From NCBI GenBank assembly GCA_001938485.1, contig MQRK01221289.1, positions 1 through 64,000 of the forward strand: DNA of 64,000 nucleotides. The letters are read 5' to 3'. This DNA comes from Girardia tigrina (taxonomy: Eukaryota). The notes beneath the pieces were generated by a model. It was not told the origin of the DNA and searched no databases. It saw only the letters and a list, made by a program, of their open reading frames with translations. Position 1 is the stretch's first letter. Each line of letters opens with the position of its first letter. Positions 43-7,824 of this stretch are shown one piece after another. Position numbers and translations under genes: made by a program.

Positions 43-106
43 GAGTCTTGTGAACGTAAGTTTAATATTTTGAAAATAAAATTTGATTAAAGCTTTTTAT
101 ATAATT

Positions 107-148
107 ATTGGACATGTTTCGATGTTTATATACATCATCATCATCAAT
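107..148 (-). ncRNA. Minimal type I hammerhead motif in pLTR (core variant AUGAUGA)
   Basis: Minus strand AUUG-AUGAUGAU-GAUGU-auauaa-ACAUC-GAAA-CAUG-UC-CAAU; partner of 4519-4560. Confidence 0.6.
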
Positions 149-518
149 TTTAATACAATTTTAACAGATACATTAACTTTAAAAGGTATATTACGAATTA
201 AATATTATCATTTATTAAGGTATTATTGAATAATTATGGCAAAAATATTTTAATTAAAAATTTTAAGTATAGAAATAACTTTAGTTTGTCCATTCTGAAT
301 GTTAATTGAGGGTTTTTAGTGTTTTATTAGTAGAGATTCACAAAACTGTCGTTCGTAATGTGAATCAAATCCCTTTTGTAGAACAGAAAACTCATCTTTT
401 GAAATGGATGAGGTTCTATCCTTACAACATAACCAATGATCAAGAGCCTTACTTGATCGACTCATTTGCGAGTGCTCGCTAATCCGGGTTTTGAGATGAC
501 GATTTGTCTCTCCTATGT

Positions 519-3500
519 GGGCCTCCCCCATCTCTGTAATGGTATTGAGCCTAAGGGCTCTTTGGATGGTCCACCCAAACTAAAGTCCTTAAGGGCCCCC
601 GATAGGCCTCCTACGGGGTCAGTGGCCTTCCGCCTCTGAGCAGTCGGCTTGCCAGTAACGAACGACCAACCATGGAACTTGGTACCATGGCCGTACATGC
701 CGTTGGCTGTTACGGTGGACGCGTAACAACCGCGAAATGGACACTTGAATTGTCCTCTTGCAGTCTTGTAATCGGCTGGCAGTCGGTATTGTAGGTGCGT
801 CTCTTCGGAATCGTCGTTCGGCTGTATTCTCGGCATACTCACAGTTGCGTCTCGCAACTGAGGATTGGATTGGTTTGATGTCGGCTCTTCCTCGTTCTCT
901 TCTTCCAAGTTTTCTTCTCTCTGGGCGTTGGATGTTGGCGTTTCTTGATGATTCTTCTGAATATGAATCCTTAGAAAACCAGTGGCCTTGTATTCCCCCG
1001 GACAGTGTTGACATTGATATTTTCCTTTCTTCTGACGTGGCTGGGCTTTCTTCTCTCTCTTCTTCCGCGGGATTGGCTCTGCTCCTTCGTGATCTTTTCT
1101 GAGATGCCTATTTAACTCCTTCACTTACGCATATTGTTTGCAACAGGCACCCATCGGGCAGCTGTGTTCTTTCAGTCGAGGTAGCACCAGTCTTATTGTT
1201 TGCTCGTCCCCGCTTCTTTGAATTCTCTTCAGTCGGAATACTTTCTCGATCTTTCCATCTATCTTCAGTAAGTTTTCCTGCAGAACGTTTCTTTTAAATT
1301 CACCGAAACTGTACTCGGCTCCAAAGAGCCAGTGAGCATCCACTCTGAGACATTCTACCAGATGTTGCTTTCTCCGACTGCTGATCTTCTTTCCTCCGAT
1401 GAGTTCGCATCCACTNATCTGCTTGACGTTCTCCGGGCATTCTCCTAAATCGACCTTGGTATTGTGTACGATTCTTCTCCGCGCGATGATATCCATTGGG
1501 CTTTGCAGTCCAATTGATATCTCATCCATCCTGATCCTTTCGGCTTTCAAAATCCCCAAAGTTCGCCGAGTACATAGATTGTGAAATACTTTTAGCTTTT
1601 TCACGTGTACTTCATTTGTCCTCCAATTTTCACAGCTGTAGTAAACCACCGGGAATACACAGCTGCTAATTATGTTCTTCTTAGAGACAATTTTTTCTTC
1701 TGGAGAGACAATTGGTTGTTTTTCAATACTGGTGTGATCGTCCGTAATTTCGCTGCTCCTTTCTGAATTCTGGCTTTGATGTCCGCACCTGAGCTTCCTC
1801 CACTTTCAATTATCGATCCCAGGTAGCAGAAGTCGTCCACCCATTCTATTCCGGCATTCAGCTCGTCTCTTTCCGTAATGTGCTTTGCTCCATTGAGATT
1901 CAGGATCTTTGTTTTCCCAATGTTGATTTTAAGCCCCACATTCAAGAACACAGTGTCGAGATACGTGAGATTCCGTTCGATATTTCCATAGTCTTCGTCC
2001 AGTAAGCACAGGTCATATGCATAAGCAAGTCTGTTCACGGTCAGCTCTTCCCCATTATATTTTAGTTTCACACCACCTGATAGTCCTTCTTTGATCGCGG
2101 TCTTAATTGCATGATCAAAAACAAGATTGAATAGTAGAGGACCCAATACGCAACCCTGACGGACTCCTTTGTCCATACTGAATTTATCCTTTCCAATGCT
2201 TCCCGTGAAACCTTCATAAAATTTCATGATGATACTTAGCATCCGATCCTGTATTCCAATTCCTTGAAGGCAATCTCAGAGAACTTTCCTGGGTACGCTG
2301 TCAAATGCCTTTTCAAGGTCGATAAAAATAGCAAATACGTTTATGTTCCGGTATCTGGCCTCTTCTTGTATCTTTCGTAAGATACCAATCGCGTACGCTG
2401 TGCTTTTGTTTGGTCTGAAACCAAATTGCCAGTCGTCCAGTATCCTTTCGAGATGTGGCAATAATCTATTTGCAATGATTCGGGCCATGATCTTTCCTCC
2501 TACATCAAGTAGGAATATGCCTCTATAATTATTCGATTCCTTCTTGGAACCCTTTCCTTTGTATAGGATCACCACTTTCACCGTTTTCCAAGCCTCTGGG
2601 AATTCTGCTCTTTCCTCCCATATGTCCACGAAACATTGCTGTATCTTCTCAGTCAACTAGACACCGCCCCATTTATATAGTTCTGGAATGATACCATTGT
2701 TTCCAGCAGCTGTACCGTCCTTTAGTTGTCCAAAAGTGATACCTACTTCTTCTACGTCCAGTGAGTGGTCTATTTCGAGTGCTTGACTCTGTTCGATTTC
2801 CACGAGATAGTCTCTTTCGCTTTTTCAGAATAGATGTGAGAAGTGCTCTGCTAACACTTCGTCCTTCACACTGCTTTGTACAGTACAGAGAGAGGATTCC
2901 TTCGTTTCACTATTGCAGAGGACTCTGAGCTCCGTGTATAACTCAGAAGTCTTGCCCATACATTCTTTATTGAGAATTCCTTCTAGTTCTTGTCCAATTC
3001 CCTCAGTCCTCTCTCATTTCCATTTCCTGAGATGCCACAAGGTGTTCAGTCTTGCAGCCTTCCACGTCGAATATGTTCTTTCACATCTATTCTAAATGTA
3101 TGCTTTCCTTCGCTTCCATTTCTCCTGCAGTAGGGGTTTCAGCTCTTCTAGGTGTCCGTGTAGTCACCTCTGATAAAGCGCGACTTTTTTCTTTCTGTAT
3201 CTTTCTGAGGTCTTCAAAATGACCTTCTCCACATCATTCCAGGTCTCGACATTCGGACAAGCCTGTCCTATGTCACTACTGATGGCCACTTTGTTGTTCT
3301 CCAAGGAGAATCTGTCAATTTTTCTTTTTCTTTTCTTTCTTCTATCATTCGCCAACTTGAGTACCTTATTGTTGTTGGTGATCCATATCGTTAACACGAC
3401 TAAGTCGTGCACAGAGCCGCAGTCAAAATTCGGGTAGCTTTTGACATTGCTTATCCTGTTGCATCTGCTCTTTTGCGACAGGAATAAGTCCAGTAGTAGT

Positions 3501-4376
3501 CTTTTTCTCGTTGCCGGGTGTGTCCAGCTAGTTCTCTGCACCAACTTATGTTTGTAGAAATTGTTCTCTACTCGTAAGTTGCACGCGTCAGCAAGATCTA
3601 TTAAAAGATCTCCGTTTTCTGATGTTACTGTTGAACTAGTGTAACACCCGACAGTCTTTCCGTTTTCCTCCGTCCGATTAAGTCGACAGTTGAAGTCGCC
3701 TCCAACTATCTGTTCGTGTTTCCTCTTTTCAGCCTTAGTCGTCGCCCTTTGGACATGTTCTTGCAGTAATGCGAAGAACTCTTCCTTTTCCTCACTTGAG
3801 TGTCCGCTGTCAGTCGGAACGTATACCCCCACCATTGTGATCGACCTTTTGAGTATATGATAGAGGAACACTCTCTCACTGATCGCTTCGAATGCGATGT
3901 TCAATGAATCCCCAGATTTTACAATCATGGCTACGCATTTTTCCCTTATGCTACTCGTACTGCCACTATGATGGATCCTCCAATCCCCGAAAGATGCAAT
4001 GTCGGTTCCGATCCAGTGCGTCTCTGTGAGTATACACATATCAATTTTCAGTTTTTCGAAGATACTGACAAGGTTTAGTATCTTTTCATCGGTTAAGCCT
4101 CGAACATTCCAAGTTCCAACCCTCAGTCCACTGCAAGTGGAATCCTTAACGAGGTATCCCCCTCTCGGGAGCTTAATGACTTCGGGTCCTTCGACACCCC
4201 TTGTTTGAGTTTTAGAAGCTATGTCTTAGCGAAGGATAAGATTGCTAGCCCGTCGATCAGTCCACTCATTTAGCCTAGATCAAGGACCTTTCTATTTCTA
4301 GAAAGGGAGGAGACCCTCTTTCTAGTTCCCAGGATACACCATGGGGAGGCGAGCGACATTGTATCCCGTACATATC
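519..4376 (-). mobile_element. Full-length RTE-like non-LTR retrotransposon (APE endonuclease + RT + three C-terminal C2H2 fingers), degenerate
   Basis: APE motifs GTWNVRG, ILTETHW, VYVPT, GGDFN. RT motifs [41 protein letters not shown] (YADD mutated), FCYLGSII. Several stops and frameshifts. Exact 12-bp TSD TCTCTCCTATGT at 507-518 and 4377-4388. Confidence 0.93.
4260..4367 (-). ncRNA. HDV-like self-cleaving ribozyme at the LINE 5' end
   Basis: Minus-strand RNA: P1 GGGAUAC/GUAUCCU (G1-U wobble), P2 GUCGCUC/GAGUGGAC (one bulge), P3 GCC/GGU, L3 UCCCCAU, P1.1 CC/GG, P4 CUAGA...UCUAG enclosing CCUUUCUA-GAAA-UAGAAAGG, J4/2 GCUAAAU with the catalytic-position C at 4273. Confidence 0.9.
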
Positions 4377-4518
4377 TCTCTCCTATGTACGAGTTTTGAC
4401 AACCGTGACAATTAAATTTATATACCATATTAGCTTGCAAACCACAAACTGTTTTCGATTTGTTTGAGAGGAAACTTTGAACTTTGAAAGTTAATATATC
4501 TATTAAAATTGTATTAAA

Positions 4519-4560
4519 ATTGCTGATAATGATGTCTATAAACATCGAAACATGTCCAAT
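4519..4560 (+). ncRNA. Minimal type I hammerhead motif in pLTR (core variant CUGAUAA)
   Basis: AUUG-CUGAUAAU-GAUGU-cuauaa-ACAUC-GAAA-CAUG-UC-CAAU: stem I AUUG/CAAU, stem II GAUGU/ACAUC, palindromic CAUG loop III. Confidence 0.65.
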
Positions 4561-4732
4561 AATTATATAAAAAAAGCTTTAATCAAATCATATTTTCCTT
4601 TTAATATTAAAATTAAATTTACCTTCTGTTTTTACTTTTATAAATAATTGTTTTTAAAAGAAAAAATATTTAAGAAACGAAAATTTATTTAAAAACGAAA
4701 CCGAACAACAGGGTTTCATTTAATCCTTTTAA

Positions 4733-4803
4733 CCATTTGAACGCGTTAAACATTATTAAACATTAAATCCGGGCGATTATAGTCGATTTACGCGTTCAAA
4801 GGG
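4733..4803. mobile_element. 71-bp piggyBac-type MITE
   Basis: TTAA on both sides (4729-4732, 4804-4807). Termini CCATTTGAACGCGT and ACGCGTTCAAAGGG. Confidence 0.75.
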
Positions 4804-5668
4804 TTAAAATTTAATTTAATCCCTTTAAATTTATAATTTTGACAATTTTATGGTAAATTTCATTGTGAAACTTTATCTGTGTATTGTTTTTTGAATAAAT
4901 TCTATTTTATTTTTCGTTTTACTTTTACAAATGCAGTTTTTTCCATGTGCGCTTTTTTACCTATGAGGTACTTTCCGTGAGCGCTTTTATCCGTGAACCG
5001 TATTTAAGTATGATCTGATCTAATATTGCGCATTCATTTTAAATATGTTATTTTTTAAAAAAAATTCTGGAATTATAATTTATAAATTATTTATTGCATG
5101 TCTTTTAAATATAAAAAATAAGTAAGTTGTTGGTTTTCATGGATACGTATTTGTGTGAATGTTTATTGTTTCTATCTTTTCCAAAAAAAGTGTAAAGAAC
5201 CATAATACAGTGCAAACACTCTCAATTTTGATTGATAAATTTTTCTTGTATGTTAGTATTTCTTACTAAAATAAATTTAAGAACCGCCTAAACTGTTAAC
5301 AATGTAACCGAAATTCGAAGCCTAAGCGTGGCCACGCTTTGAAAGCTCGCATCCGAAGCCGTATGAGAGGATCATAATACTTTGTATTAGTCGAATGGTT
5401 TCTAGCCAATACAGAGTCTATGATTTACTACCATATGTGCCAATGCTGAGTATTATTTTTAATACACAGTTATCTGACTCAGTTTGGAGAGGCTTATATA
5501 CATGGTGTTAACAATTTTCAAGTTCAATAATTTTTCATGAATTCCCAAATCCTAATACGATATAGAGAATAAGTGGTGTTAACTTTGAAAGAAAGTATAG
5601 CATAAATTAATATTTAGGGAAAAAAAGCAAAAGAAATTATTCTTAAAAAATCTAACAATATAAATATG

Positions 5669-7507
5669 TCAGTCAAAGAAATTCACAGTCAAACCCGGCG
5701 TTACCTGAACTGCACTTTTCCCGCTTGATTTTTTTGAAAGTTTTTTCAACAGATGTTTAAATGTCGGGAATACTGGTTTTGGTGTTGATATAAAAAATTC
5801 TCTGATTGTGTCGGGAACTTTAAATAAAAATACGTTATGTCGATTAAAATCTTTTGTCTTAAAGCATTCCATGTTTTCTAATAGTTCCAATTCAATATGT
5901 TTTACAACTCGCTTTCTCGTGAATTTATAAATTATTTTTTCTTTTACGTAATTTTCTGATCTGATTTTCCGCGGACGAAAAATAGATGCAAGAAACTCCA
6001 TTAATTCTCTGTAAGCCGATCCACCTGCATTTATTAGTCCTTGGTAAATGTAAGACTGATAAAACTTTTGCCGGCCGACCAAATGAACCAGAAATTCTTC
6101 ATGACTCGAATGAGGAATTTCCGATAAAGTATCACCATCTATCAAATCAGGATCAAATATATCAAAACCTCGAAAAAGAAGATTTATCGAAACTATACCA
6201 GCCGACCATGTGTCAGTGAGAAATGTCGGTTTAAACGTTTCTTCGTCAAAATTAATGCCCGGCGCATCAAAAAGCTTTCTATTTTTCTTTATTTCATCAA
6301 AAAGTGGATGGGCTTCCCAATCCATTTGCAAAAGATTGACTTCAAAATCTTTGTAATACTGCGTTCCTTCAACATTAGCTTTATAATTACTACTTTCTAC
6401 TTTATCGAGATCACTGTGTCGCACGAGTAACTTGTTCGTTTTTCTATGAATCGTTCTTGTCCGATAAACTAACCCAAAATCTCCAATTTTCAAATGTAAA
6501 GTCTCAGAAATCATCAAATTATCGGGTTTAATGTCCTGGTGAATGATGTTTGATTGGACAAGAAAGTCCAGCCCACAAAAAATTTCAAAGATATACATCA
6601 ACGACACATTTAAAACATTAACTTCTCCATCAAGATTTTGAATGAGTTCAAATTCGTTTTTTTCGAGTCTTCTAGAGATATCTGAATAATCTTCGACAGT
6701 AATGTTGGAAATATAGGAATACAATTCTCCGATACAATATTCGAAAAATAGAAACAAACCACCGACATAACTCAGTTGCAATGAATGATAGAATTTCACA
6801 ACAAATGGACTACTCATCGCTCTAATGACAGAATCCCGCTCGGTTATGTAATTTAAAATCTGTTTACAATGGTCTAAAAAATCTTCCGATTGGGCAGAAA
6901 TATATTTGATTGCGTATACCTTTAACGTTTTAGGATCTTTTCCACGATAAACCTTTCCATACGCTCCTTTTCCAAGTAATGTAATGTCTTCGAATTTCTC
7001 GAAATATGATGAGCTCAAATCTTGTCTGTTGTATTTGAGAATATTCTTCATTTGATTATTATCCTTTTTTGTGCTATTTAACAGAAGAAGAGTGTTATCA
7101 TAAAAGAACTGTTCACTCATATTGACCACCCAAACGACAATATCGATGTACGAATCGGAAACTTCTAATGCCGTTTTCAAATTACCTTCGGATATTTTCA
7201 GAGGATTTACTGTGGTTTCGGTGGTCGGAGAATACGCAGCAAACGTGCTCGACCATGCGGAACCTATACTGTTTCTTGATAAACTTTGAAAGTCGTCGAA
7301 TCGCGCTTTTTTATTGCAAGGTGATAATAATGCATTTTTGTTACTGCGAGGCGAAAATACTTTCATTTTATCAATTAATAATTCGGTTATTTCATTTTCT
7401 ATGTTGGTTTCTATAGACGGGGGTAAGTTGATTTCCGAGTGTCCATTTAAATTACTGAAAATTATATTTTCCGGTAATTTTGGAGGCAGAAAATTATCAA
7501 GATTCAT
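5669..7507 (-). CDS. Intronless divergent Ser/Thr protein kinase (612 aa, non-RD)
   Basis: Uninterrupted ORF with LGKGAYGKVY, YAIK, HQDIKPDN, DFG, GTQYY and DTWSAG motifs. Confidence 0.88.
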   Translation of the reverse strand: MNLDNFLPPKLPENIIFSNLNGHSEINLPPSIETNIENEITELLIDKMKVFSPRSNKNALLSPCNKKARFDDFQSLSRNSIGSAWSSTFAAYSPTTETTVNPLKISEGNLKTALEVSDSYIDIVVWVVNMSEQFFYDNTLLLLNSTKKDNNQMKNILKYNRQDLSSSYFEKFEDITLLGKGAYGKVYRGKDPKTLKVYAIKYISAQSEDFLDHCKQILNYITERDSVIRAMSSPFVVKFYHSLQLSYVGGLFLFFEYCIGELYSYISNITVEDYSDISRRLEKNEFELIQNLDGEVNVLNVSLMYIFEIFCGLDFLVQSNIIHQDIKPDNLMISETLHLKIGDFGLVYRTRTIHRKTNKLLVRHSDLDKVESSNYKANVEGTQYYKDFEVNLLQMDWEAHPLFDEIKKNRKLFDAPGINFDEETFKPTFLTDTWSAGIVSINLLFRGFDIFDPDLIDGDTLSEIPHSSHEEFLVHLVGRQKFYQSYIYQGLINAGGSAYRELMEFLASIFRPRKIRSENYVKEKIIYKFTRKRVVKHIELELLENMECFKTKDFNRHNVFLFKVPDTIREFFISTPKPVFPTFKHLLKKLSKKSSGKSAVQVTPGLTVNFFD

Positions 7508-7824
7508 AATTTATCGATTTAATTATTAAATATGTAATCGATTGATGTAATTAATGAAATAAGAAATGTTTAAATTATTTGCTTTATATTGTACTAAAAA
7601 AAAATTTTGGTTCCCAAGTAATTGAGTAATGGGACAATTGCGTAAAATTTAATATTATTATAATATATACTCAATATCAATTGTTGCTTACAACATACAG
7701 ATAATTGTTAGTAAATTGTATTTTTTAAATTTTTTATAATGTAGCTGTAGTTTTTAAAACTCATTTGGAGTATTCAAAAACTCAAAAGAATATATTGTGA
7801 ATAAAATGAAATCTAACTCTTACA

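Follow-up and report, generated by a model that had tools for sequence, protein, structure and literature searches.

The window, a stretch of 64,000 nucleotides from Girardia tigrina (contig MQRK01221289.1, positions 1 to 64,000), carries a full-length, decayed LINE on the minus strand, lodged between the two parts of a Penelope-like element. The features of the locus are:

60..506, minus strand: Penelope-like host after the insertion, comprising the rest of the GIY-YIG domain and the 3' end
116..147, minus strand: hammerhead-like core with one mismatch in the host 3' end, with a second at 4523-4551, plus strand (both from a motif scan only)
507..518, minus strand: downstream copy of the target-site duplication
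519..4367, minus strand: full-length LINE of 3849 nt with a single decayed ORF (AP-endonuclease (APE), reverse transcriptase (RT), C-terminal C2H2-like fingers)
519..560, minus strand: 3' terminal hairpin and tail, common to families A, B and C and weaker in S1 (approximate limits)
672..1160, minus strand: three zinc-finger motifs of C2H2-like type close to the C terminus (approximate limits)
1670..2656, minus strand: RT part of the ORF (RVT_1)
3164..4225, minus strand: APE part of the ORF, with no in-frame AUG ahead of its first motif
4260..4367, minus strand: HDV-like ribozyme head of LINE family A, with G1 at 4367 as the family 5' end
4273, minus strand: predicted catalytic cytosine, the C75 equivalent in J4/2 GCUAAA
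4342, minus strand: L3 position 6, the G25 equivalent, A here and G in the family; likely disabling (effect from PMC13635239)
4368..4376, minus strand: 9-nt junction filler private to the window copy, outside the family
4377..4388, minus strand: 12-bp target-site duplication, upstream copy, covering the YIGE codons of the Penelope nuclease
4389..4486, minus strand: Penelope-like host before the insertion, reading ...VYKFNCHGCQNS up to the Tyr codon
4482..4597, plus strand: inverted copy of the host 3' end, lying ahead of the truncated host on its upstream side, with arms 94-185/4482-4573 and 72-103/4566-4597

The host and its surroundings

Joined across the LINE, the flanks read ...VYKFNCHGCQNS-Y|IGETNRHLKTRISEH..., which is the GIY-YIG domain found behind the RT of a Penelope-like element. 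The host protein has an RT (Pfam) followed by this C-terminal nuclease domain, in which the signature CxxC...YIGET..R..EH is legible; the half domain of the window matches Pfam GIY-YIG with an E-value of 0.091. The insertion point is T|AC, within the Tyr codon of the YIGET motif, and the 12-bp duplication at 4377-4388 and 507-518 that the earlier note recognized around the LINE is real.

Minimal hammerhead cores have been linked to Penelope elements (PMC7761336), and the window has two one-mismatch cores, one in the host 3' end and one in its inverted copy; the Rfam hammerhead models gave no match in the window. Empty sites and the boundaries of the LINE tails assign the hammerhead-like sequence to the host and not to the LINE. 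Two further observations concern the neighborhood: an uninterrupted 613-codon frame with a protein kinase domain (5669-7510, minus strand; Pkinase E-value 2.7e-24) precedes the Penelope remnant by 1.1 kb in the same orientation and could supply read-through, and an 83-nt inverted repeat with 23-nt arms of 91% identity (4727-4809) resembles a small MITE.

The LINE ORF and its affinities

The LINE codes for a single protein with an APE and an RT domain, without an ORF1 or an RNase H domain, which is the architecture of the RTE clade. From this and from the RT motifs, which we take to look RTE-like, we infer that the label RTE applies. In the RT tree the order of branching is A/P0002, D, B/C, then E/F, then P0100, the deeper links being without support; families A, B and C are 61-63% identical in the RT. 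The next-best protein matches carry a DUF6451 domain, and the tree does not join the LINE group to the DUF6451 proteins with support. Tx1 elements have an ORF1 plus an ORF2 with an L1-type C-terminal zinc region: the LINE has no ORF1 and gives no zf-RVT match, its C-terminal matches being to C2H2 fingers instead. Vingi and Ingi have C2H2 fingers; their RTs group with that of the I group, and Ingi has an RNase H, for which the LINE ORF gave no match. The element combines an APE domain with a Penelope target, rather than the restriction-like endonuclease and 28S rDNA target of the R2 clade.

The earlier note had called the ORF dead. This is accurate for the window copy, which has eight stops and a frameshift relative to an intact relative, and does not extend to the family, in which intact 1145-aa ORFs exist; public assemblies hold intact ORFs of 1145-1188 aa for families A and B. 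The start of translation is unusual: about 255 nt of 5' UTR precede the first APE motif, an in-frame Met before APE motif I is absent in 48 of 53 heads (two B heads have one), and in most A copies a stop lies 36 codons ahead of that motif. A short frame (window 4270-4226, minus strand) starts from an AUG that overlaps the ribozyme end; in most A copies its stop codon is in frame with the main ORF, a configuration with which read-through or re-initiation would be possible.

The ESM Atlas yielded generic APE-RT clusters only, and a metagenome scan recovered one near-full relative (L168), which is 33% identical, breaks off short of the 3' end and gave no HDV match. Its structured 5' region (L168:370-460) looks twister-like by eye and has no match in Rfam.

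An HDV-like fold at the 5' end

The 5' terminal region displays the nested double pseudoknot that defines HDV-like ribozymes, with P1, P2, P3, P1.1 and P4 in order on the minus strand; in agreement with the earlier note, each element reads at its place. P1 is formed by GGGAUAC (4367-4361) and GUAUCCU (4337-4331), 7 bp with a G1-U wobble; P2 is bulged (4357-4351/4267-4260); P3 is GCC/GGU; L3 is the 7-nt UCCCCAU (4347-4341); P1.1 is provided by GG (4330-4329); and P4 (4325-4275) includes a GAAA-capped hairpin. J4/2 is GCUAAA, with the candidate catalytic C at 4273, and a C occupies this position in 62 of 65 family A rows, a count partly fixed by the anchor used in picking them.

A descriptor search, which the note had proposed and for which we wrote a descriptor, returned this site (G1 4367, C 4273) as its only match in the 64-kb window, against one match in 60 dinucleotide shuffles of the window and none in 1000 shuffles of the element. 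The two HDV models of Rfam, which represent the viral forms and one bacterial form, both stay below their gathering scores at the window head: RF00094 reaches 33.4 bits (E-value 0.065) against 50, and RF02682 reaches 24 bits (E-value 0.4) against 44. Plain minimum-free-energy folding of the head, which leaves pseudoknots aside, gives an ordinary energy (z -0.82). For P4, the short alternative hairpin aligned by Rfam was rejected: it would omit the catalytic C and has -10.7 kcal/mol, as opposed to -17 to -22 kcal/mol for the long P4.

The term canonical, which the note had used for this ribozyme, suits the family better than the window copy. U20 and G25 of L3 are present family-wide (29 of 29 other copies fetched with the window query, judged by eye), whereas the window copy has A at 4342 in place of G25, that is, at L3 position 6; it also lacks 4-5 nt of P4. 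In the C. briggsae ribozyme the change G25A left no visible cleavage within 60 s (PMC13635239). Hence, because of this substitution, the window copy is probably catalytically impaired or does not cleave at all.

Four related head families and their covariation

Beyond family A, three related families of heads were recovered: B, which heads a related LINE, and S1 and S2, which head ORF-less elements, about 300-410 nt long, that have HDV-like heads and are flanked by duplications of their own (S1 loci L137, L078, L116 and L132; S2 loci L115, L118, L127, L128, L135 and L070). The S1 and S2 heads are a lineage apart from the A/B heads and not simple deletions of family A. Genome-wide, the short-P4 pattern has 772 exact matches and the A/B core pattern 507; Rfam gave no HDV match on three short-element loci.

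Covariation in the paired regions, a test that the note had suggested, is uninformative within family A since its copies are about 92% alike, and turns out positive in P1, P2, P3 and P1.1 when the four families are compared. Thus, P1 positions 6-7 are A-U/C-G in A and C-G/U-G in B; positions 1-2 are G-U/G-C in A and C-G/A-U in S1; and positions 4-5 are A-U/U-A in A and G-C/G-C in both S1 and S2. P3 position 3 changes from C-G to U-A in S1 (23 of 23), as does P1.1 position 2 (21 of 23), and two-sided pair changes between the families also occur in P2, whose pairs hold in 47 of 48 cases in family B. The fraction of paired positions is 0.91-0.98 within A, S1 and S2, and drops to 0.51-0.71 when A strands are matched with S1 or S2 strands. 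One exception is a U-U mismatch at P3 position 1 in all 8 family B copies. A C at position 1 and a U-A pair in P1.1, as seen in S1, occur in an active ribozyme (PMC13635239). The counts for P4, P2 and C75, and for G25 at loci found with the A/B core pattern, lean on the anchors used to pick the copies; hence, invariant P4 pairs and anchor-chosen positions were not counted as evidence, and the basis of the comparison is four head families that are themselves related.

Judged by these sequences, the HDV-like fold is real, with the covariation backing it. The sub-threshold Rfam scores and the G25A of the window copy would also be expected if the fold were a vestige and starts at G1 had another cause, such as a transcription start; we deem this very improbable in view of the compensatory pair changes that separate the families in P1, P2, P3 and P1.1, and of five head types (the fifth, from lineage E, is described below) that all start at P1 position 1 though their first bases differ.

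Two observations on head variants are recorded here. A subfamily of A has a distinct P4/P2 variant (L213, L214, L215, L219, L221, L230, L231, L236 and L238); it is off target in 9 of 9 sampled heads, several of them at T|AT, and may have lost or changed its specificity. Directly behind the ribozyme lies the motif GGGCUAGCAAUC (window 4252-4238, minus strand), which recurs slightly changed in A, B, S1, S2 and E and is possibly a protein-binding or translation signal.

The 5' boundary and its junctions

A head search of the 1.43-Gb genome gave 1160 candidates, 40 of which were scored. Alignments of 27 of the 39 other scored copies begin at exactly G1, and none begins at 4376, the position that had been proposed as the 5' boundary; 4368-4376 is instead filler private to the window copy. 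A second sample was drawn from the first 30 places of the core pattern without the 5' strand of P1, two of which were set aside as other: among the remaining 28 A/B heads, 17 start at +1, eight at +2, one at +3, and two are shorter. The ribozyme is thus borne out as the 5' head of a single-ORF APE-RT LINE, 25 of these 28 heads starting at +1 or +2.

A T at -1 is seen in 15 of 16 off-target heads, and in several two-ended copies it is part of the duplication, while most on-target junctions are without it. A family 5' boundary one base before G1 could be an alternative reading of this T; on the grounds just given, we read it as a priming bias and not as element sequence. Variable 5' junctions of this kind are known from R2 elements with self-cleavage at the first base of the element (PMC3774820). 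Some automatic duplication calls (for example L037, L091, L124 and L341) were chance matches and were left out.

A recurrent target in the catalytic motif of Penelope nucleases

The main feature of the locus, which the earlier note overlooked, is that the insertion site is a recurrent target inside the Penelope nuclease gene. Across the whole genome, 118 of 328 exact A heads have the upstream 10-mer of the host within 25 nt, 234 of 786 exact A tails continue for 16 letters into the host, and 908 of 2234 main-family host sites read as empty by exact match. The exact on-target counts are lower bounds of the share, since any mutation breaks a match, and all counts are inflated by duplicated contigs of the assembly; the samples are first-in-order or best-scoring rather than random. 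The first 30 host sites in contig order comprise 15 empty, 14 filled and one unclassified; among the 14 fillers, family A supplies one full copy and five truncated ones, each with its own breakpoint, while three are B, one is C and four are S1 elements. Thirty on-target A head loci have 20 different junction strings of nine lengths in 32 matches.

The site is struck in other host families as well, at the homologous codon: L060, L092, L148, L163 and L165 document this from the 3' side and L125 from the 5' side, the flank of L163 reading as P0077, which is 41% identical to the main host segment. Hence, a repeated target has received independent insertions at one and the same base, alongside empty sites, as in other target-specific non-LTR elements, and the preference is partial: it holds for at least 36% of the heads, and 16 of 28 sampled heads and 57 of 98 sampled tails lie off the main-family site.

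A single old insertion in Penelope, amplified as a composite by the Penelope machinery, by duplication or by assembly redundancy, would explain why neighboring contigs with identical junctions are visible duplicates, and why two copies (L095 and L102) have host DNA downstream and not upstream. Yet at one base we find four families, truncation at eight different points and junctions of nine lengths, next to 15 empty sites, and different host families are struck. The differing families, breakpoints and junctions rule out the spread of one composite as the main cause; this explanation is largely refuted by the survey of 30 sites and their fillers and junctions, and we consider what is left of it scarcely credible.

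Several loci have a more complex structure. In L138, L039, L260 and L101, LINE tails, S1 units and full LINE heads are arrayed head to tail and share one duplicated spacer, an arrangement that may result from serial insertion or template jumping. At L084:1611-2250 a 5'-truncated A copy is directly preceded by the sequence of a tRNA-Lys(TTT) gene, which brings along a few bases of its flanks; the fusion sits at the Penelope target within one duplication and is likely the product of a template jump. The full-length heads of L095 and L102 have unrelated DNA upstream and host DNA downstream: they could derive from a ribozyme-cut RNA of LINE plus host copied as a unit, or from scaffold joins across gaps.

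A bipartite recognition motif

Off-target duplications likewise start at T|AC: in 57 off-target 3' flanks the first base is A in 55, followed by C in 51, with weak preference beyond. Upstream of this, GTG-N10-TA is found in 16 of 42 off-target junction zones as against 12 of 329 control zones; a spacer of 10 is the peak among spacers of 6-14, the others giving 0-5 occurrences, and 26 of the 42 off-target heads are without the motif. Read against the host gene, TAC encodes the Tyr, and GTG falls across the Gly-Cys codons of the CxxC; the window host has T instead of the first G of GTG. The short elements differ in their on-target share, which is 9 of 20 flanks for S1 and 1 of 9 for S2, where the motif is present.

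The bare GTG-N10-TAC is common, with 10 occurrences in 64 kb, and by our own scaling the 2234 main host sites make up about 1% of motif sites, yet they account for at least 36% of heads. Since the host sites are over-used relative to so common a motif, something more must act: either the protein makes wider contacts, or read-through RNA pairs with the nicked strand. The Penelope site could be a self-reinforcing hotspot, in which a modest preference for GTG-N10-TAC is combined with read-through host sequence steering the next insertion back. Consistent with this, over half of the sampled copies are off target, many with the short motif only; the motif itself is common; copies stack behind one another with target-like duplications; and a B copy has entered a related LINE at a chance motif match (L231). 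However, divergent host families are struck at the homologous codon though their downstream DNA differs, three LINE families with 61-63% RT identity keep the same site, and the motif lies on conserved Cys and Tyr codons of the host nuclease. We accordingly regard the hotspot as a possible but rather unlikely account, and prefer recurrent targeting of the YIGET codons.

The sister lineage E

Lineage E, an abundant sister to A-D with 51% RT identity, has none of its 16 distinct tails (25 loci) on the Penelope nuclease. Its heads start at GGGAUC and have an HDV-like fold with a 6-bp P1 (four heads at three places, none on the host). These heads (L354, L362, L371 and L372) show a long P2, a 5' J1/2 insert and no clear P4, making them candidate minimal HDV-like ribozymes; Rfam gave no HDV match on them. 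Since a lineage without targeting has such a head too, the ribozyme is independent of Penelope targeting and no sign of it. The ribozyme seems to be older than the targeting.

A proposed life cycle and the source of the transcript

Taken together, we consider it probable that the locus is a decayed LINE with a predicted self-cleaving head, of a family that repeatedly targets one base in the YIGET codons of Penelope GIY-YIG nucleases by the following mechanism. The LINE would be transcribed by read-through from upstream DNA, which in intact hosts would be the Penelope transcript; the ribozyme would then cut before G1 and free a unit-length, uncapped RNA, to be translated, in family A, without a standard start codon. 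Insertion would likely proceed by sequence-directed target-primed reverse transcription: the LINE protein (its APE, perhaps aided by the C-terminal fingers) would read GTG at -14 to -12 and nick the strand opposite T|AC, and reverse transcription would start from the shared 3' hairpin, with pairing between the 3' read-through RNA and the target perhaps adding the remaining specificity. Second-strand priming by microhomology would give rise to the duplications of 8-15 bp and the variable filler. S1 and S2 would use the same LINE machinery. Each on-target insertion splits the host nuclease at its catalytic motif.

Contigs from RNA libraries contain the LINE head and the host, and give no reading of ends, strand or level; a dip beside G1 in the RNA-library data falls on a local duplication of the reference. 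Most of the hosts seen, including that of the window, are 5'-truncated, which leaves a host promoter hypothetical. The earlier note had the family use self-cleavage instead of an internal promoter, an opposition that is not entailed, because L1Tc combines a promoter and a ribozyme in the same 77 nt (PMC3383444). With that precedent, the head could be a ribozyme plus an internal promoter, with no need of upstream Penelope transcription: many full-length copies are off target, lineage E thrives without Penelope, and the motif directly behind the ribozyme is common to all families. The variable junctions from G1 match the self-5'-cleavage pattern of R2 (PMC3774820), and ribozyme-bearing RTE elements are described as promoterless (PMC6765202), though both are compatible with a promoter here. 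On balance we judge such a promoter improbable, and favor read-through transcription.

Comparison with known systems

In the sources cited, HDV-like ribozyme heads are described for RTE, R1, R2, R4, Ingi/L1Tc and LOA LINEs (PMC5786205; PMC6765202; PMC3774820); ribozyme-headed RTE LINEs are thus known, and the ribozyme class itself is nothing new. The described elements resemble those reported here in the double-pseudoknot head, the predicted cut at the first base, the variable 5' junctions and the single ORF without a clear start codon. What differs is that four to five diverged heads in one clade here give covariation, and that the window copy has G25A.

Three groups of systems bear on the targeting and the protein. 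The closest precedent is Tx1L in Tx1D, together with SINEU-3 and its Tx1 partner in Mariner-N4_AMi (PMC4494074): here too an APE-type LINE and a short dependent element prefer one site in another transposon family, with SINEU families showing site preferences of 13-90% according to the same source. Those are Tx1-clade elements whose targets are non-autonomous DNA transposons (PMC4494074), whereas the present LINE has a single ORF, C2H2-like fingers and a ribozyme head, and its target is the catalytic motif of a retrotransposon nuclease across divergent families. The second is that of R2 and the R2/R1 SIDEs in 28S rDNA (PMC3414825). The likeness lies in a ribozyme head, predicted in our case, that frees the element from a host co-transcript, in short ribozyme-headed non-autonomous partners, in several lineages occupying one site, and in a tRNA fused to the 5' end by a template jump, as at L084. 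R2 uses a restriction-like endonuclease on a cellular multicopy gene with near-complete specificity (PMC3414825); the present LINE has an APE, a transposon target, a specificity of roughly 35-50% and a presumed co-transcription. The third comprises RTE-2_OV, an RTE-clade LINE with a C2H2 finger and, likewise, a single APE-RT-C2H2 ORF of about 1100-1190 aa (PMC9115989), and the bipartite ORF-less RTE derivatives (PMC5786205), which, as do S1 and S2, consist of a head and a tail in a short element. They differ in that the portions of PMC9115989 and PMC5786205 considered here report no target specificity.

Our literature search, which did not extend to Repbase or to most subscription papers, turned up no LINE that targets Penelope. 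What appears to be new, from sequence comparison, is a group of ribozyme-headed RTE-like LINEs with short partners that prefer the active-site codons of Penelope nucleases.

Implications

Target-specific LINEs are found mainly in the early-branched, Tx1 and R1 groups (PMC4640811; PMC3706591). The targeting described here would add an RTE-like group to the few groups of LINEs that choose their sites, and would extend their targets to a new kind, the codons for the active site of another retrotransposon. It also provides a natural setting in which to test how specificity arises in an APE-type LINE, since the targeted families A, B and C and the untargeted lineage E share a genome, a bipartite motif is visible and intact ORFs are public. 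Insertion tools are a further point of interest, as the LINE is compact, has a single ORF and a defined target, and makes an RNA that is predicted to process itself.

For the biology of these elements, the LINE is likely a parasite of another genetic parasite, Penelope. A more far-reaching reading, to which we give no more credence than to its denial, is that an RTE-like clade and its short partners have evolved to read the Cys and Tyr codons of the Penelope nuclease in the manner of homing endonucleases; they would thereby track many host families, ride on their transcripts, free themselves and break the nuclease, leading an R2-like life on a retrotransposon. Since roughly one in two of the main-family Penelope sites sampled is occupied, the LINE may limit the spread of its host.
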